Virus record (IMG/VR): IMGVR_UViG_2667527666_000008 | Direction: 5' to 3' (one strand) | Source of the DNA: a virus | Lineage: Duplodnaviria; Heunggongvirae; Uroviricota; Caudoviricetes | DNA: 33,255 bases | Shown here: one piece after another, positions 1 to 15,279 of the stretch | Position numbering within the stretch: the stretch's first letter is position 1 | How the letters are laid out: the number at the start of each line of letters is the position of its first letter | Made by a program: the position numbers and the translations under genes | The notes under the pieces: model-generated | What the model saw: the letters and a program-made list of their open reading frames with translations, nothing else | What the model was told of the DNA's origin: nothing | Database searches by the model: none

Positions 1-1131
1 TCAAATGACCAGTTTTTTCCACTCCTTACCGCGTACATCGTTGTAAATATCGGTCATTTTTTGATTCGAATGGCCTAGCAAAATTTTGGTATCAACCCCC
101 TGCTCTCTGAACAATCGCTCTGATAAAGATCTCTGCTCATGGAAAGAGGGTGGGGTGCCATTAGCACGCCAGTTGTAATCCACAGAATCCCGGGCTTTTT
201 TAAATGCAACGGTTAATGTTGCTGGCTTAACCATCCCGCCGCGCTTAGCTGTCCCTTTCGCGTGATGGTGGTGCAATAGCCACGGACTAAGAACGCAATC
301 GCGGCAGGATGACACTACATCATCCAGGGTGAGATTTAATTTATCGCAACGCAGAGCCAGAGGGATGGCAATCCGGGTTCCTGTTTTTTGCTGTTCGACA
401 TGAAGATAACCATCCCGGATATCCGAAAATTGCATTTTGCAAATATCTGAAAGGCGCTGGCCTGTCATCAGTGCCAGCAGCATACCGCGCTGTAAAAAGT
501 AACCATTCTTTTCCGCTGCGTTATAAATCATCATCCACTCATCAAAAGTCAGTCGCTGTCTTGATATCCGCACCTGCGGTTTTTTTGCCGATTCTGCAGG
601 GTTAAAGCCTGGCGGGACATCGCCCGTTTGCTGAGCTTCCCGGAAAACATCGATCAGTACTTTCCTGAAAATTTGTCCCATTCTGTTATGTCCTCTGGCC
701 TTGTACTCTTCCAGTACTGATACCACATCTTTTACGGTTATGGCATCTAACGGTCTGGTGCCAAAACGTTCATCAAATACCCTGAGAGGGGCCGCTTTCT
801 GTTTCAGCGTGTTGAGTTTGATCTCGCCGTTTTCATATCTTTCCTGTTGAATTTTTCTGTAATTATTCAGAAAAATGGTAACGGTTGATGAACCGCCGGT
901 ATCACTAATAATTTTCTCCTGCAGACTGAGCATTTGTTCCATTTGCTGCCGGGCAAGACGGCTGTTCGCTTCTGCTGCAATAGTTTCTGCCAGTTTCTGG
1001 TCAATACTGCCGAGACCGTGATTTTTGCCTGTTATGGGATGCCTGTAACGCCAGTAAACTTTGTTATTTCTTTTGTCAAAATACGGAGATAATCCCGGAA
1101 CATCGGTTTTATATTTTCGCGGGCGCGCCAT
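1..1131 (-). CDS. int: Phage integrase, tyrosine recombinase family
   Basis: 376-aa ORF with a typical lambda-family integrase C-terminal catalytic region (R...HxxR...Y context, 'LLGHSNQKMTDIYNDV'); stop codon at window positions 1-3; first gene of the leftward arm. Confidence 0.9.
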   Translation of the reverse strand: MARPRKYKTDVPGLSPYFDKRNNKVYWRYRHPITGKNHGLGSIDQKLAETIAAEANSRLARQQMEQMLSLQEKIISDTGGSSTVTIFLNNYRKIQQERYENGEIKLNTLKQKAAPLRVFDERFGTRPLDAITVKDVVSVLEEYKARGHNRMGQIFRKVLIDVFREAQQTGDVPPGFNPAESAKKPQVRISRQRLTFDEWMMIYNAAEKNGYFLQRGMLLALMTGQRLSDICKMQFSDIRDGYLHVEQQKTGTRIAIPLALRCDKLNLTLDDVVSSCRDCVLSPWLLHHHHAKGTAKRGGMVKPATLTVAFKKARDSVDYNWRANGTPPSFHEQRSLSERLFREQGVDTKILLGHSNQKMTDIYNDVRGKEWKKLVI

Positions 1132-1357
1132 CTTCCAGTATCCTCTTCAAAGCAGGGTGATCTGTGGCGATCACCTCCGGCTTGTTTACCATTCCGACAA
1201 AGCGAGCTTGCGGATCCACTCGCCAGCGTCTTCCAACTTTTTTGGGGAGAGGAAATATCATTCCGGCTTTAGCGTATTTACTTAACGTACTCGGAGTAGG
1301 GACCGGTTCACTGAATTCCTCTTTTGCCCACTCAGTGAGCAGAATAAGTCTTGCCAT
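1109..1357 (-). CDS. xis: Excisionase-like small DNA-binding protein
   Basis: 82-aa ORF immediately upstream of and overlapping the integrase start; basic, with the 'FPLPKKVGRRWRV' pattern seen in Xis/AlpA-type winged-helix proteins. Confidence 0.65.
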   Translation of the reverse strand: MARLILLTEWAKEEFSEPVPTPSTLSKYAKAGMIFPLPKKVGRRWRVDPQARFVGMVNKPEVIATDHPALKRILEDGAPAKI

Positions 1358-1421
1358 GAGCGTCGTTCGCTAATCATGGTCGCCGCCACTATAGCTGGTG
1401 GGCAACGACCGGGGTTGAACA

Positions 1422-3893
1422 TTAAAAATCAGCCTGATTTGGGATCAGTTTTTGCCAGATAGCTGAAACGTATTTTGCCTGGTAACGGGCGTCATCAAGT
1501 GCATTATGGCGCTCACCTTCGAATGGAATAGCCGTTCTGGCATCGAAGTCTATGGCTTTCCCCAGCTCAACGATTGTGCGTACATCGCGATCGTTGTAGT
1601 AACGCCACGGGCAGGGGATCCCCTGCCGTTCGTATGAACGGCGCAAAATCGTGTTGTCGAAGTTGGCTCCATTTCCCCAAACCTGAACAAAAAATTCACC
1701 GGAGTTTTCGTCGATAAATTCCCGCAATTGTAACAGTGCATCATCTAACGGGATTTCATCGGTCATAATGGCAGATTGCGCTTCGCGTGATTGCTTAAGC
1801 CACCATTTAATGGTGTCCCGATCAATGACTCCGCCAGCAGTTTCCAGATCGATAGTCTTACTAAATTCCGGTCCCATATCTCCGGTTTGCGGATCGAAAA
1901 ATATTGCACCTATTGAGATGATCGGGGCATCAGGATTTTTTCCCATGGTTTCAAGGTCGATCATTAGATGGTCACACGTCCTGCTGGTGGATGTGATTTC
2001 TTGATGACCGTTCACCTTAATTGAGTGATCTGCCGTCTCGCCAGTTTCATTATCGCTATCGTGATGCTGATTGCCGCCAGTGTTCTCCTTGTGTGGATGT
2101 TCAGCGCCTTCCATTTCCTCCGGATCATCTTCCTGAACTTCAGGCTGATACTCTTCATCGAATGTTTCCTGGTATGTTGCGTCGCCCATTACCGCGCCAC
2201 AATCAGGGCAGTTGCCGCCGCCGGTCTGACCGCAGGCGGTGCAGACTTTTTCCACTTCCTGTTGCGCCACTGATTCAGGCTGTTTCGTTTCTGGCTCGTT
2301 TTGTAACGCATTTGGGCTGTTTTGTTCCGCTTTCTGGTCGTTCTGTTCCGTTTCTTGCTGGTTCTGGTTCACAGAATCGCGGGTCTGGTTCCCCTTAACC
2401 CATTTCGGATCATTCGGGTCGCTAATCCCTTCAACAAATTCACCACGTGATACTGCAAGCAGTTCATCGGCGTCAGGCTGGCTGATATTGGCTGCCTGCA
2501 TAATTTTGTTTACTTCGTCAGCGGTAACTTTTACTGACCCTGGTTGTGCGGTCGTGTCAGATGCACCAGTATTTTGTTGTGAACCTGAGTATGTACCGTT
2601 TTTGCGGGCGAAATATTCTTCTTTCGTGATTTCAGTAGCCCCAGCAGACAGCGCCTTATCCAGACCAGAAAGTTTGTTTGCGCGACCGTATTTTTCGCCA
2701 TCCTTGTCGGTGAAGAGGAAGTAGAACGGCCCCTCACGTTCTACAGATGGTTCGACTTCCACTTTGCATTCGGTTTTTTCGTTGTCCGGAATTGCCGTTT
2801 CCACTGCATCAGTTTCTGGTACTGGCGACGAGAGAGTATCAGTTGCGCTCTGATTTGTTCCTTCATCTTCAAACACGCCCTTTGTAGTCAGGTATTCAGT
2901 AATGTATTTGTTCAGTGCCACAGGGTCTTTGTGAATGTCGATCGGACGTTCACGGACAAGGCCAAAAATAGTCTGGCGGTCGTAGCGAAGGGCATCAGGC
3001 TGTTTGCGCATTGATGCCGAGATACGCTTCCAGTCTTCGCGGTCGTTGTCGATAACTTCATTTTTTGCCCAGCGATGGATGCTGCCGTCAATGTTTCCGG
3101 CATCCACATCACCAGGCCAGAGAGCGTAGGCCAGTTCGTCATCCAGTGTTTTCCATGTCTGCTTGTATTCGCGATGAATGGCAGCAATGACCGGGTTGAT
3201 TTTTCCTGTTGAATTTTCAGTGTGCTGTTGATTGGCTCTGGCGCGGGCGAGATCAACAACAGACGTGTATTTTCCGGCTTCCTTGCGTTCACCTTCGCGA
3301 CGTTTTTTCCAGATGCGCATCTCTGCCTGAATTTCGGGCCATTTGGCACCAGGCTTACATTTATGCTTAACCCACCCGATGGCATGCAGCTTAAGCTCCG
3401 GATACATGGCGTTAACTTCTGGCATTTTCATCAACGCTTCAACGATATGTCCGTCGAATGTTGCCATGTCTTCCTGCAACAGTTCCTGCGCGCTAATCAC
3501 CATATCAACGGTGATGTTTTCACATGTGTCGAACTTAACCATGACAGCGTTCTGTACTTCAGGGGCCAGCTTGTCAAAAGTGACGTTCATCGGATCTGAT
3601 TCAGTCTCAACCGGGACAAAGGAAGCAGACGCCTCATCCCAGCGGTTTTCCTGCATATATTCAGCATCCCAGGAATCTAGGGCAGGGCGGGGTATACCGG
3701 GTTTATCCTCGCAGACAAGAAATTTATAAGCGCAGTCCTGAGCAGCCGGATAATGTTCCAGGAATTGCCAGTGAAATTTTGCGCGGGCGCGACGTTCATC
3801 ACCGGCTTCAATGGCAGTGGCTACAGCGACTGCACCTTCTTCCTTTATTGCCTGTTCGTCCGGAATGGCGGCGCAAATAAAGACTTTACTCAT
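1422..3893 (-). CDS. Large early protein with C-terminal DEDDh-type 3'-5' exonuclease domain
   Basis: 823-aa ORF; C-terminal ~180 aa carry the DnaQ-like motifs (DLETMG..., W.NG.NFD, H.ALDDARY); central Q/E-rich low-complexity linker and a CxxC-x14-CxxC zinc-ribbon-like motif. Occupies the position of the recombination exonuclease in lambdoid left arms. Confidence 0.6.
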   Translation of the reverse strand: MSKVFICAAIPDEQAIKEEGAVAVATAIEAGDERRARAKFHWQFLEHYPAAQDCAYKFLVCEDKPGIPRPALDSWDAEYMQENRWDEASASFVPVETESDPMNVTFDKLAPEVQNAVMVKFDTCENITVDMVISAQELLQEDMATFDGHIVEALMKMPEVNAMYPELKLHAIGWVKHKCKPGAKWPEIQAEMRIWKKRREGERKEAGKYTSVVDLARARANQQHTENSTGKINPVIAAIHREYKQTWKTLDDELAYALWPGDVDAGNIDGSIHRWAKNEVIDNDREDWKRISASMRKQPDALRYDRQTIFGLVRERPIDIHKDPVALNKYITEYLTTKGVFEDEGTNQSATDTLSSPVPETDAVETAIPDNEKTECKVEVEPSVEREGPFYFLFTDKDGEKYGRANKLSGLDKALSAGATEITKEEYFARKNGTYSGSQQNTGASDTTAQPGSVKVTADEVNKIMQAANISQPDADELLAVSRGEFVEGISDPNDPKWVKGNQTRDSVNQNQQETEQNDQKAEQNSPNALQNEPETKQPESVAQQEVEKVCTACGQTGGGNCPDCGAVMGDATYQETFDEEYQPEVQEDDPEEMEGAEHPHKENTGGNQHHDSDNETGETADHSIKVNGHQEITSTSRTCDHLMIDLETMGKNPDAPIISIGAIFFDPQTGDMGPEFSKTIDLETAGGVIDRDTIKWWLKQSREAQSAIMTDEIPLDDALLQLREFIDENSGEFFVQVWGNGANFDNTILRRSYERQGIPCPWRYYNDRDVRTIVELGKAIDFDARTAIPFEGERHNALDDARYQAKYVSAIWQKLIPNQADF

Positions 3894-11909: not shown

Positions 11910-12596
11910 ATGACCCCAATAAAAATATTTATGACTATTGCTGATTTCAAACGGCCTAAATTGGAGCTCCCAAACGGGGCAAACAAACTACTACTGCACT
12001 CTTGCTGTGCTCCATGTTCCGGTGAAGTGATGGAGGCGCTTCAGGCCTCGGGAATCGACTACACCATCTTTTTCTACAACCCGAACATTCATCCTCAGAA
12101 AGAGTATTTAATTCGTAAGGATGAAAATATTCGCTTTGCTGAACAACACGGCGTGCCGTTTATCGATGCTGATTACGACACCGACAACTGGTTTGAACGT
12201 GCCAAAGGAATGGAATGGGAGCCTGAGAGGGGGATCCGTTGTACCATGTGTTTTGACATGCGTTTTGAGCGGACAGCGTTGTACGCTGCTGAAAATGGTT
12301 TCAGTGTGATCAGCAGTTCACTGGGCATTTCACGCTGGAAAAATATGCAGCAGGTTAACGAGTGTGGGCGGCGAGCTGTTGCGCATTATCCGGGTATGGT
12401 GTACTGGGATTATAACTGGCGCAAGCAGGGCGGCTCGTCCCGTATGATTGAAATCAGCAAGCGCGAAAAATTCTATCAGCAGGAATATTGTGGCTGTGTG
12501 TATTCTCTGCGCGATACCAATCTACACCGCAAATCTCAGGGACGCCCTCTTATCAAAATTGGCCAACTCCACTACGGAAAAGAAGAGAAGGAGTGA
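11910..12596 (+). CDS. QueH-like protein (DUF208, epoxyqueuosine reductase family)
   Basis: Family-diagnostic motifs '[11 protein letters not shown]' near the N-terminus and '[11 protein letters not shown]' near the C-terminus, plus internal '[10 protein letters not shown]'; alternative start at 11931; preceded by a promoter-like AT-rich region. Confidence 0.65.
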
Positions 12597-12833
12597 TTTT
12601 ATGGATCACCTTTCTGATTGATTTCATATTGGCGAGGTGACGTGAGTTAAGTAGAATGGCTGCGGGTGCTTGAGGCTATCTGTCTCAGGCATGAACACTG
12701 AAAGGCAGATAGAGAAAAGCCCCAGTTAACATTTCGCGTCCTGCAAGACGCTTAACATTAATCTGAGGCCCAATCTATGTCTCACAAATGTAGGTTAGCC
12801 TCTTACGTGCCGAAAGGCAAGGGGAAGCAGGCT

Positions 12834-12989
12834 ATGAAGCAGCAAAAGGCGATGTTAATCGCCCTGATCGTCATCTGTTTAACCGTCATTGTGACGGCAC
12901 TGGTAACGAGGAAAGACCTCTGCGAGGTACGAATCCGAACCGGCCAGACGGAGGTCGCTGTCTTCACAGCTTACGAACCTGAGGAGTAA
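12834..12989 (+). CDS. hok: Hok/Gef-family type I toxin (51 aa)
   Basis: MKQQKAMLIALIVICLTVIVTALVTRKDLCEVRIRTGQTEVAVFTAYEPEE: single transmembrane helix plus the conserved Hok C-terminal region; in-frame upstream extension from 12777; structured leader and 3' fold-back hairpins. Confidence 0.85.
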   Translation: MKQQKAMLIALIVICLTVIVTALVTRKDLCEVRIRTGQTEVAVFTAYEPEE

Positions 12990-13058: not shown

Positions 13059-13078
13059 ACCCGCTTCGGCGGGTTTTT
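13059..13078 (+). terminator. Intrinsic terminator (CCCGC-ttcg-GCGGG-TTTTT)
   Basis: GC stem-loop plus T-run downstream of hok; the same hairpin recurs at 14894..14915. Confidence 0.65.
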
Positions 13079-13154
13079 GCATTAGTCTGGTTGACAAAAA
13101 TAGAAAAATGCGAAAATATGTGGTTTACGAATTCTAAAAAAAGCGAAACTTGAA

Positions 13155-13805
13155 ATGAATGAAAATCAGTTAGCTCCTTGTTGGGAATTTCAACCTTATC
13201 TTGCTGAAAACTATGTTCGCCACTTGTTGGCGGAGATCGCTAACGTACTTGAGCAGCTGTACTATCATAAGCACGCATTAGACAGCAACTGGTCTGAAGG
13301 TGTAAGGGCTTATGATTGGGTCAGAAATCATCTTATTCAAAATGAAGATGCAATTCCTGGCCTTGAGATGATTTCCAAGGGGTTGGACTATGTAGTTGCT
13401 TTAAATAAAGTTCCGCTACAATTTACCAAAGATTGCATTAATAACCCCAAAAAGAAACATCGTCTGCGTCGAAATAAAGTAGAGTATGAGCAGCTCTCAT
13501 TGTTTGGTGATGTTGAGGCTGAGCAAGATATTACATGGCGAGTCATAGCTGAGCCTTTTTTATCCGAAGAGGGCGATGGTGAATTAGAGTCCACACTGCC
13601 TCGTTGGGAGGTAGCTCTTGTTGGATTTAATACTTATGGTGCTCAGATTAGTATAGTTTCTCATCAATCTACAGCATCGATGCCGCTTATGCCTCTTGAT
13701 TATAACACACTCCCTGACGAAGCGGAGATTAATAAGGTGCCTCTTCGTCGGCGTACGAAGGATAAAGATTTGGATGTGAGCAGTGATGGAACATCAGGTG
13801 AATAA
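13155..13805 (+). CDS. Hypothetical protein (216 aa), first gene of a two-gene cassette
   Basis: AT-rich ORF with no recognisable motif; acidic C-terminal half; stop overlaps the start of the downstream HTH-peptidase gene by 23 bp (operon). Confidence 0.6.
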   Translation: MNENQLAPCWEFQPYLAENYVRHLLAEIANVLEQLYYHKHALDSNWSEGVRAYDWVRNHLIQNEDAIPGLEMISKGLDYVVALNKVPLQFTKDCINNPKKKHRLRRNKVEYEQLSLFGDVEAEQDITWRVIAEPFLSEEGDGELESTLPRWEVALVGFNTYGAQISIVSHQSTASMPLMPLDYNTLPDEAEINKVPLRRRTKDKDLDVSSDGTSGE

Positions 13806-14889
13806 CTTCACTGAGTATCGGGGTGATAAGCTCAAACTAGCGAGAATGGCTGTTGGGCTTTCTTGTGAAGAGTTAGCCGAAAAAATTGGCAAGACAAAGC
13901 AATTCGTTAGCAAACTGGAGAAGGGGTGCAGGCCATCGGAGCAATGTCTTGAGTTAATATCTTCAGCGCTTATGATTAAGTCCAGTTTTCTTTTTACTGA
14001 ACGAAAATACGCTCTGGAAAGTGATGTCTGCCATTTTCGGAGTAAGAAGTCCAGGACTCAAACGCTGACTAATAGTGTATTGGCCAGGGCTGAGATTCTT
14101 AATATTATAATTTCTGCTGTTGAAGGTGAAATCGAATTTCCTGACGTTAACATACCGGAGCACCCAGGGGCTGAATTACTTACTCCGAATGATATTGAGC
14201 GAGTGGCAGAAGATTGTCGCCGTGCCTGGAATTTAGGTCTTGGCCCTATATCATCAATGGTTAAATTGGCGGAGAGTTTAGGGGTAATCGTTGCGCATGT
14301 TACGGGAGTCGATGATCGTGTTGATGCTTTTACTGTTCACAATAACAGGCCTGTTATCATCAGGAACAATGTTAAAAAAAGCATATGTAGATTTCGCTCT
14401 GATTTAGGTCATGAATTAGGGCATTTAGTAATGCATGAGGGCATAACGACAGGTGATAAACTTACGGAATCACAAGCCGATCACTTTTCGAGCGCCTTAT
14501 TAGTTCCCAGGTTATCTTTCATTAAAGAATTTCCACGAATACGAGGTAAGCAATTCGACTGGAATGCTCTGGTTGAATTTAAACTTAGATGGAAAATCAG
14601 CCTTAAAATGTGTATTTATCGAGCCAGCGCATTAGGCTTATTGACCCAGGAACAGGCAAGAACTGGCTATATGCATCTTAATTCCAGAGGGTATACGAGA
14701 GTTGAACCTGGTGATGAACTTTTGCGCCCTGAAGAACCCGGCATGCTGGCCGAGGCGATTGAAATGCTGGATGATGCAACCTGGCTAAGAATTCTTATGA
14801 AAACTGGCTTGAGCCAAGATTTAATTCGTGAGTTGTTCTCCATCAACAGACCTATTACAAATCCAAGAAATATTTTCCAGATTGTTTGA
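13783..14889 (+). CDS. XRE-family HTH fused to ImmA/IrrE-type zinc metallopeptidase domain
   Basis: N-terminal HTH (LSCEELAEKIGKTKQFVSKLEKG) and central HExxH zinc-binding motif (GHELGHLVMHEG) in an ImmA/IrrE-like context; 368 aa; AT-rich. Confidence 0.75.
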   Translation: MMEHQVNNFTEYRGDKLKLARMAVGLSCEELAEKIGKTKQFVSKLEKGCRPSEQCLELISSALMIKSSFLFTERKYALESDVCHFRSKKSRTQTLTNSVLARAEILNIIISAVEGEIEFPDVNIPEHPGAELLTPNDIERVAEDCRRAWNLGLGPISSMVKLAESLGVIVAHVTGVDDRVDAFTVHNNRPVIIRNNVKKSICRFRSDLGHELGHLVMHEGITTGDKLTESQADHFSSALLVPRLSFIKEFPRIRGKQFDWNALVEFKLRWKISLKMCIYRASALGLLTQEQARTGYMHLNSRGYTRVEPGDELLRPEEPGMLAEAIEMLDDATWLRILMKTGLSQDLIRELFSINRPITNPRNIFQIV

Positions 14890-14893
14890 GTAT

Positions 14894-14915
14894 ACCCGCT
14901 TCGGCGGGTTTTTTG
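14894..14915 (+). terminator. Intrinsic terminator (second copy of ACCCGCTTCGGCGGGTTTTT)
   Basis: Same hairpin as 13059..13078, followed by a longer T-run; immediately after the HTH-peptidase gene. Confidence 0.65.
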
Positions 14916-14998
14916 TTTTTATTTTCAACGTGTTTGAAGTTTTGGACGGTGCCAGAATAGAATCAAAAATACTTAAGTAGCGCGCAGGGAGAAGAGGG

Positions 14999-15220
14999 AT
15001 GGACCCCGAACAGGGGGAGTGCTATTTATCTGGAAGGATTCTGTTGATGAAAATCGAAGAATTACGTGAAATTTTTAGTGAAGATGGCCTCTATGCTGTG
15101 CGCGTTGAGAATGGGGGTATTACCTACACAGCGTTAATTCCTGATGATCATGTAGTGTTATCTGTTGAGGCATTCATTGAATACTTGGAAAGACTCGGTT
15201 TCAAGGTAGTTCGGGAATAA
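14999..15220 (+). CDS. Hypothetical protein (73 aa)
   Basis: GAGGG ribosome-binding site before the ATG; small acidic product. Confidence 0.45.
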   Translation: MDPEQGECYLSGRILLMKIEELREIFSEDGLYAVRVENGGITYTALIPDDHVVLSVEAFIEYLERLGFKVVRE

Positions 15221-15279
15221 GTTATAATACGTGAGCCAGCCTGAACAACTGGCAACCTGCAGCGCCATTGGAGATGACA

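Follow-up and report, generated by a model that had tools for sequence, protein, structure and literature searches.

A Probable RosmerTA Toxin-Antitoxin Module Carried as a Moron by Escherichia coli Prophages, With a Clamp-Binding-Like Motif in Its Putative Toxin

Introduction

What kind of system is encoded by two overlapping prophage genes that lie between identical terminators, the first for a protein of 216 amino acids and the second for a helix-turn-helix (HTH) domain fused to a zinc peptidase, and how does such a cassette move among prophages? This question is raised by positions 13059–14915 of a 33,255-nt stretch of Caudoviricetes DNA (IMG/VR record IMGVR_UViG_2667527666_000008), which is referred to here, at its full length, as the window. 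The cassette is very probably a RosmerTA module, i.e., a type II toxin-antitoxin (TA) and anti-phage system, of the subtype RmrT-PDLC03929/RmrA-PDLC03943, carried by the prophage as a moron. It is a diverged member of a known system, and standard defence-system annotation would label the locus RosmerTA.

RosmerTA was described as a Zn-peptidase antitoxin paired with a toxin of unknown function, in which rmrA could not be deleted (Millman et al., 2022), and as a group of diverse toxins with an ImmA-protease antitoxin that often bears an N-terminal HTH (Ernits et al., 2023). Defence was verified for the Rosmer system of E. coli OLC-716, whose version deleted for rmrA could not be transformed, possibly because it was toxic (Millman et al., 2022). 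Protection against phages was also verified for the Rosmer system of Gordonia phage Kita (Ernits et al., 2023), and in Pectobacteriaceae rmrA and clpX are essential solely in the strains that carry Rosmer. This article describes the identity of the cassette, the evidence for its exchange at one prophage site and a proposal on how its toxin may act.

A Probable Rosmer Pair Encoded by the Cassette

The downstream gene of the cassette, rmrA (13783–14889, plus strand, as are all the elements of the cassette), encodes the putative antitoxin and repressor, a protein of 368 residues from the GTG at 13783 or 367 residues from the ATG at 13786. It matches Pfam HTH_3 at residues 17–63 (E 5e-7) and Peptidase_M78 at residues 177–282 (E 6e-11), which correspond to an XRE HTH at about 13831–13971 and an M78 Zn-peptidase at about 14311–14628, and it is also recognized by phrog_2439 and, over residues 12–351, by the PADLOC RmrA profile PDLC03943 (E 6e-105). 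The metal site of the peptidase is complete, comprising HELGH at residues 210–214 (14410–14424) and E229, and could be aligned with those of OLC-716 RmrA and of RipB, the antitoxin of the RipA/RipB pair of Streptococcus pneumoniae. The upstream gene, rmrT (13155–13805), encodes the 216-residue putative toxin, which is matched by the PADLOC RmrT profile PDLC03929 (E 4.6e-25) and by phrog_5786 (E 8e-85) and belongs to no Pfam or NCBIfam family. Thus, the cassette combines the features that characterize RosmerTA, namely an antitoxin with HTH and M78 domains, an HExxH motif plus a Glu and an adjacent, co-oriented toxin gene. The numbers of the Rosmer profiles pair in three systems in such a way that the T index plus 14 gives the A index; the cassette and the E101-type allele described below have the pair 03929/03943 and RipA/RipB the pair 03931/03945. 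In one genome, that of E. coli FDAARGOS_1249 (locus L017, 834–1802), the insertion sequence IS5 interrupts rmrT and leaves rmrA intact, a hint that the cassette behaves as a TA pair.

Two other Rosmer systems were compared with the cassette using the OLC-716 sequences from the supplement of Millman et al. (2022) and a ripAB locus retrieved from S. mitis with a published ripA primer. The OLC-716 system is likewise a two-gene operon with the toxin first and an antitoxin of about 370 residues with XRE HTH and M78 domains, falls under the same PADLOC system definition and has an RmrA that is 29% identical over 300 residues, whereas the toxins are unrelated in sequence and are matched by different RmrT profiles (PDLC03929 here and PDLC03935 in OLC-716). 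RipA/RipB (Spr1630/Spr1629) is a Rosmer-family TA whose RipB is 25% identical to RmrA over its full length; it differs in that RipA has no detectable homology to RmrT (hhalign probability <1%), in being chromosomal rather than prophage-borne and in its reported role, the induction of competence.

A previous sequence-only reading of this DNA had placed the 20-mers, the open reading frames (ORFs), the low GC and the HTH and HExxH peptidase at positions where every one of these elements was found. It had also proposed a profile search with the 216-residue protein, which returned the RmrT and phrog_5786 matches given above; the protein fits no structural or metabolic family. Its suggestion that the HTH-peptidase controls the upstream partner as its effector is judged to be right. 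Two other views of that reading had to be given up or revised: the fusion with an accompanying unknown partner, regarded there as unusual, is the defining architecture of RosmerTA, in which an XRE-HTH/M78 fusion lies 3' of a variable toxin, and both of the paired PADLOC profiles were matched; and in place of a stress-sensing derepression switch of the ImmR/ImmA style, experiments with relatives have shown an essential antitoxin that neutralises a toxin in trans, together with ClpX/ClpP.

According to the mode of action proposed here, the cassette promoter would co-express RmrT and RmrA in the lysogen, as the architecture suggests, and RmrA would neutralise RmrT, with ClpX/ClpP also needed to restrain the toxin, as shown in relatives. 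The HTH of RmrA probably also represses the operon. When this control fails, e.g., upon infection by another phage, free RmrT would arrest the cell, and the benefit for the lysogen would be an abortive-infection defence such as that shown for two other Rosmer systems. Some observations weigh against the assignment as a defence module: verified Rosmer defence is confined to the OLC-716 and Gordonia phage Kita systems, which both belong to other subtypes, and RmrT shares just 24% identity with the E101-type toxin, while no similarity could be detected between it and either RipA or the RmrT of OLC-716.

Organization of the Cassette and Prophage Context

The window contains exactly two copies of the 20-mer ACCCGCTTCGGCGGGTTTTT, at 13059–13078 and at 14894–14913, both on the plus strand, and no match to it arose in 100 dinucleotide-preserving shuffles with 2 mismatches tolerated. 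Both copies fold into a GC-rich hairpin with a UUCG loop, after which comes a U run (-15.1 and -10.9 kcal/mol; z -3.4 and -2.9, respectively), and both were called in the terminator scan. The left copy is the terminator of hokD and the left boundary of the insertion, being the sole copy in prophages with an empty site, and the right copy marks the end of the rmrTA operon and the right boundary. GC content is 0.39–0.44 over 13150–14950, compared with 0.51–0.58 in the flanks. The two genes overlap by 23 nt when rmrA is read from GTG, or by 20 nt from ATG 13786, the start assigned by RefSeq/PGAP.

Upstream of rmrT the block TGGTTGACAAAA-N-ATGC-N-AATAT is kept in four versions of the cassette, the E101-type allele included, and because of this conservation it is taken as the probable cassette promoter, possibly overlapping an operator of RmrA. 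The promoter would span 13091–13119, with TTGACA at 13091–13096 and AAATAT at 13114–13119 separated by 17 nt; the promoter scan of the window did not call it, as its -10 hexamer matches the consensus at only 3 of 6 positions. Overlapping the -35 hexamer is the element TTGGTTG(ACAAAA), of which two copies lie upstream of the E101-type rmrT (contig L094) and two upstream of a cassette variant of 80% identity (L003, 2990–3012). This element is a candidate RmrA operator.

Many E. coli chromosomes match the DNA between positions 12700 and 15300 of the window with 100% identity. In VR50 this DNA belongs to a lambdoid prophage that is integrated next to ompW and contains, in this order, genes for the integrase, excisionase, exonuclease, dicB, an HTH protein, YdaS/YdaT, replication proteins, DUF977, QueH and hokD, followed by the cassette, DUF968, RusA, Q, the lysis genes, terminase and portal. 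The cassette is therefore located in the nin region, directly 3' of a hok/sok type I TA locus (12664–12989, plus strand), which lies outside the cassette and whose terminator is the left 20-mer. This locus was identified by hokD (Pfam HOK_GEF, E 3e-23; annotated by PGAP at 12834–12989) and by sok (Rfam RF01794, 120.5 bits, 12664–12839).

With its own promoter, as judged from the conserved block, two translationally coupled genes and its own terminator, the cassette is a self-contained moron. The morons of lambdoid phages are likewise autonomous promoter-gene-terminator units of lower GC than their surroundings, which are placed between conserved genes of the nin region and which sibling phages lack. 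No difference of substance was noted, and the cassette is a textbook example with TA/defence cargo.

Exchange of Cassettes at One Prophage Site

The distribution of the cassette was surveyed in 5426 complete E. coli genomes. This allele is present in 237 of them, with 224 records at least 99% identical, and when the left flank, one terminator and the right flank were joined into a single query, 61 E. coli genomes matched it as one contiguous piece with up to 96.5% identity. The empty site reads hokD, a single 20-mer and the right flank, and the insertion amounts to exactly 1835 nt, i.e., the cassette plus one 20-mer. A variant of 94% identity occupies the same site with 1–2 mismatches per terminator. 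The variant of 80% identity lies elsewhere in a nin region, not 3' of hokD, and lacks the upstream copy of the 20-mer; it has the same promoter block and a 3' terminator of its own with the same CCCGC/GCGGG stem and a different loop.

A second allele came to light when IMG/VR was scanned for the 20-mer: on contig L094 two copies, 1835 nt apart, enclose different DNA. The ORFs between them belong to the same Rosmer subtype (PDLC03929 and PDLC03943, E 7e-92 and 4e-201), and their products are 24% (toxin) and 43% (antitoxin) identical to those of the window, with no similarity at the DNA level. This allele, called E101-type here, lies between the same two 20-mers and is carried by 23 E. coli genomes. 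The spacing of 1835 nt around both alleles (13059/14894 in the window and 2145/3980 in L094) is seen despite the lack of shared DNA and with protein lengths of 216/368 residues on one side and 197–213/373 residues on the other; it may be a coincidence.

Because empty, filled and alternatively filled versions of the site all exist, the sequences support the view that alternative cassettes replace one another at the border between modules where the terminator lies, and the cassette would spread among prophages through recombination at or near this shared element. The sequence-only reading had taken the terminator repeats for the footprint of cassette exchange and had suggested a search for other cargo between them in related prophages; the 61 genomes with an empty site and the divergent E101-type allele between two copies of ACCCGCTTCGGCGGGTTTTT support the idea of exchange. 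The 20-mer itself is a widely reused terminator rather than a dedicated recombination site, being very common (at least 120 IMG/VR stretches) and having, in 110 of 121 instances, neither flank that matches the flanks of the window or the ends of the cassette. This abundance in mostly unrelated contexts, together with the related but different terminator of the 80% variant and its missing upstream copy, would be expected if the two 20-mers were independent copies of a generally favoured terminator and thus uninformative on mobility. Such an explanation is nevertheless given little probability, as filled and empty sites differ by exactly the cassette plus one 20-mer, homology breaks at the repeat, and a DNA-unrelated second allele lies in the same place between the same pair of 20-mers. 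Among the isolated phage genomes of INPHARED there was no match to the cassette DNA and none to RmrT by tblastn, and the cassette is known solely from prophages and metagenomic viral contigs.

The E101-Type Sister Allele

In strain 99-3165 the E101-type antitoxin is annotated as WP_000481765.1, which corresponds to E101_02644, the antidote of the E101 prophage toxin E101_02645 (Rousset et al., 2021). The E101 accessions were not found in a search of the supplements of that study, and it was the RefSeq annotation of the sister antitoxin that provided the link. In E101, clpP is essential on account of the E101 prophage TA, and K-12 acquires the same requirement when the TA is transferred to it; suppressors of this essentiality were prophage excisions or toxin mutations, and T46S in E101_02645 is the only suppressor mapped in the subtype (Rousset et al., 2021). 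The E101 prophage TA is the closest characterised relative of the cassette. They share the PADLOC subtype, the position between the hok terminator and the DUF968 module, the 20-mers and the promoter block, and they differ in the protein sequences, which have diverged to the identities given above, in a linker motif of the toxin that is shortened to DRLFE in the E101-type protein and in the dependence on ClpP, shown for the E101 TA only.

The Toxin RmrT and Its Clamp-Binding-Like Motif

RmrT is predicted to be a soluble, acidic protein (isoelectric point 4.9) without transmembrane segments. Close homologues (53–100% identity) are confined to Enterobacterales, and a profile search of 1.84 billion representative proteins returned 69 relatives, nearly all of 190–225 residues. 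Three distant relatives were found on long contigs with unrelated, non-prophage surroundings, and the gene of each is followed directly by one for an HTH and M78 protein of 371–377 residues, which overlaps or abuts it. Comparison with the PDB gave only a chance match by sequence (E 0.83) and, for the predicted model, nothing by Foldseek (best E 0.14), and a literature search on the cassette's own protein accessions returned nothing. The AlphaFold2 (AF2) models, of moderate confidence (predicted local distance difference test, pLDDT, 62 with 13 sequences; pLDDT 68 and predicted template modelling score 0.60 with 53 sequences), suggest two long N-terminal helices and a beta-sheet core. A membrane-acting toxin like the RmrT of phage Kita was considered and rejected, the maximal Kyte-Doolittle hydropathy over 19 residues being 0.84 and no transmembrane segment being present.

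The linker between the core strands, modelled with low AF2 confidence, holds the best-conserved linear element of the protein, PKKxHRLxRNxxExxQLSLFG, in which QLSLF occupies residues 113–117 (codons at 13491–13505). Its conservation was examined in 65 family members, non-redundant at 60% identity and 17–54% identical to this RmrT. Q113 is kept in 55 of the 65, 61 have L, F, M or I at position 116, and 35 have F or L at position 117; the family consensus is E-x-x-Q-[LM]-S-L-[FL], with Q113 as the fourth most informative position. A relaxed form of the motif is present at the aligned position in 41/65 members, compared with 6/65 elsewhere in the same proteins, and a control set of 836 ORFs yielded 3 strict motifs (RmrT copies possibly included) and about 0.056 relaxed ones per 220 residues. 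QL[SD]LF is reportedly the consensus pentapeptide for binding to the beta clamp, and the QLSLF of RmrT fits it exactly. In clamp-binding proteins such a peptide, QL[SD]LF or QLxLxL, lies in an exposed, flexible segment and binds the hydrophobic pocket of DnaN.

Motifs of a similar kind were noted in other Rosmer toxins: the RipA family has invariant Q141, E143 and L144 in a mid-protein Q[ML]EL[VIF], and the OLC-716 toxin family keeps QLKLDL or QLNFGF in an otherwise variable acidic stretch. A functional analogy, and only that, is offered by SocAB of Caulobacter crescentus, whose toxin acts on the sliding-clamp pocket and is kept harmless by ClpXP. RipA is toxic and is neutralised in trans by RipB; it interacts with DnaN, suppressors map to the hydrophobic pocket of the clamp, and ClpX is needed to restrain the toxin (Maziero et al., 2025). 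The same authors described SocB and RipA, as well as their antitoxins, as unrelated in sequence and structure, and the word "motif" is absent from their article (Maziero et al., 2025).

Profile-profile comparison of the three RmrT families (that of the cassette, RipA and OLC-716) gave probabilities below 1% throughout, and homology is not claimed; one profile alignment placed the Q[LM]xL motifs opposite each other and another paired YDWVRNH with YAWTRPNH, both non-significant. Residues 53–60 of RmrT and 43–51 of RipA (locus L016) have in common Y-x-W-x-R-x-N-H-[LI] (YDWVRNHL/YAWTRPNHI), within the most conserved segment of each family. Part of this stretch was paired by hhalign at a probability of 0.3%, and the resemblance could be due to chance or to very distant common ancestry.

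From these motifs it is tentatively proposed that RmrT acts through the DnaN clamp via QLSLF, a proposal held at somewhat less than even confidence: the toxin would dock QLSLF into the sliding clamp's hydrophobic pocket and stall replication, as reported for RipA. The broader idea that sequence-unrelated RosmerTA toxins share the poisoning of the DnaN pocket through mid-protein clamp-type motifs, and are restrained by RmrA and ClpXP, is more doubtful and is put forward as a possibility.

Alternative Explanations

Several observations speak against the clamp step. The E101-type toxin reads DRLFE in the linker, without the Q and four further residues, and is toxic all the same; the strict consensus is present in only 3 of the 65 family members, and the relaxed motif was defined after the data had been seen. 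T46S of E101_02645, mapped through a close variant of the E101 toxin, would align with S47, which lies in a different conserved motif (D43..G49) and where Ser is the natural residue in this RmrT. At least one Rosmer toxin acts on membranes rather than on DnaN (Ernits et al., 2023). E110, Q113 and L116 are spaced as if on one helical face, and residues 108–115 are predicted by AF2 to form a helix, which would suit docking by RmrA. The conserved E110, three residues upstream of Q113, presumably falls outside the clamp-binding motif. These last points lead to a different explanation, in which the E-x-x-Q-L-S-L-F linker would be a docking helix or cleavage site recognised by RmrA (or ClpX) and the target of the toxin would be another one. 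A substrate is required for the peptidase of RmrA, and those of the ImmA type have a specific partner that they cleave (Ernits et al., 2023); an E101-type toxin that lacks the Q would also be accommodated. This explanation is considered possible and on balance doubtful, as RipA is reported to bind the DnaN pocket and comparable motifs occur in two RmrT families whose RmrA partners are just distantly related. That the motif equals what is said to be the clamp-binding consensus is a further argument on the side of the clamp. It is improbable that RmrT is instead a divergent nuclease of the PD-(D/E)xK fold that would degrade DNA on its release; this fold is defined by an alpha/beta core like that of restriction endonucleases and a D...(D/E)xK signature in the catalytic site.

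Regarding the function of the pair, the cassette could also be a prophage-stabilising addiction module that acts by post-segregational killing, like hokD, and confers no immunity against other phages. The cassette adjoins hok/sok, the suppression of the E101 phenotype by prophage excision or toxin mutation resembles the behaviour of an addiction system, antitoxin essentiality was reported in several species, and defence was verified in other Rosmer subtypes only. However, another E. coli Rosmer subtype and a phage-borne one do protect against phages, the two roles are not exclusive, and the empty site in 61 genomes shows that the cassette is dispensable for the prophage, so that addiction as the sole function is rather unlikely. 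Far less probable still is that RmrA is an anti-repressor of the ImmA/IrrE type that senses DNA damage and controls prophage induction, with the 216-residue protein as an accessory regulator. The XRE HTH and the M78/ImmA-type HExxH peptidase are those of ImmR/ImmA, DdrO/IrrE and CapH/CapP, the domain content equals that of ImmR plus ImmA or CapH plus CapP, and the location in a prophage would fit. RmrA also matches PADLOC capP (E 1.6e-14) and capH (E 1.5e-4) weakly, far below its match to the RmrA profile. In a switch of the ImmR/ImmA type, a separate protease cleaves a separate repressor that governs the excision or lytic genes of its element. In this cassette, by contrast, the two domains are fused and are coupled to a putative toxin, in place of an integrase operon, an SOS-like regulon or a cyclic-oligonucleotide-based anti-phage signaling system (CBASS). 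No CBASS gene, for a CD-NTase or an effector, is annotated in the 34.6-kb stretch around the cassette. Furthermore, about 1.7 kb separates the cassette, in the nin region, from the annotated immunity and replication genes upstream of it; otherwise similar prophages lack it, the same pair is found outside prophages, and the relatives behave as TA pairs.

Neighbouring Genes

Other genes of the prophage deserve mention. QueH, an epoxyqueuosine reductase (11910–12596; Pfam E 1e-65), is encoded just upstream of hokD, and metabolic cargo of this kind is unusual in a nin region. The gene is missing from the empty-site prophage L002, where other small genes occupy its place. On the other side of the cassette, the stretch that follows the right terminator (14914–15267) differs by an indel among the loci: it holds an ORF of 73 residues (14999–15220; phrog_340, E 2e-18), of which PGAP annotates a pseudogene fragment only, and neither the 94% variant nor the E101-type loci contain it, GCCAGCCTGAACAACTGG coming almost immediately after the terminator there. 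The strain of locus L018 has an IS3 just after the right terminator, with rmrT and rmrA both intact.

Just downstream of Q, a low-GC segment (17730–19309; GC 0.36) encodes a Ser/Thr protein kinase and a PP2C phosphatase. The kinase is matched by Pfam Pkinase (E 2e-33) and by the kinase profiles mad6 and PD-T4-6 of PADLOC (E as low as 1.7e-40), and from these matches the pair looks like a second candidate defence moron of the same prophage. Three tRNA genes are also located downstream of Q (19796–20045), with the anticodons CAT, TCG and TCT according to ARAGORN; the first one is annotated as tRNA-Ile in RefSeq.

Concluding Remarks

The locus is otherwise a routine one, with identical copies in about 4% of complete E. 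coli genomes. It offers a natural experiment in cassette exchange, in which a single prophage position, delimited by the same 20-nt terminator, may be empty, hold this allele or hold its 24%-identical sister, and the sister allele is among the few Rosmer systems with genetics behind them, in the form of its ClpP dependence. The motif in the RmrT linker, taken together with the report on RipA and DnaN, provides a directly testable hypothesis for how Rosmer toxins act. If unrelated Rosmer toxins did share this mode of action, many of the systems would work in one way and the repeated finding that ClpX/ClpP are essential would be explained, and the idea would predict that the phages sensitive to these systems are those depending on the host clamp.

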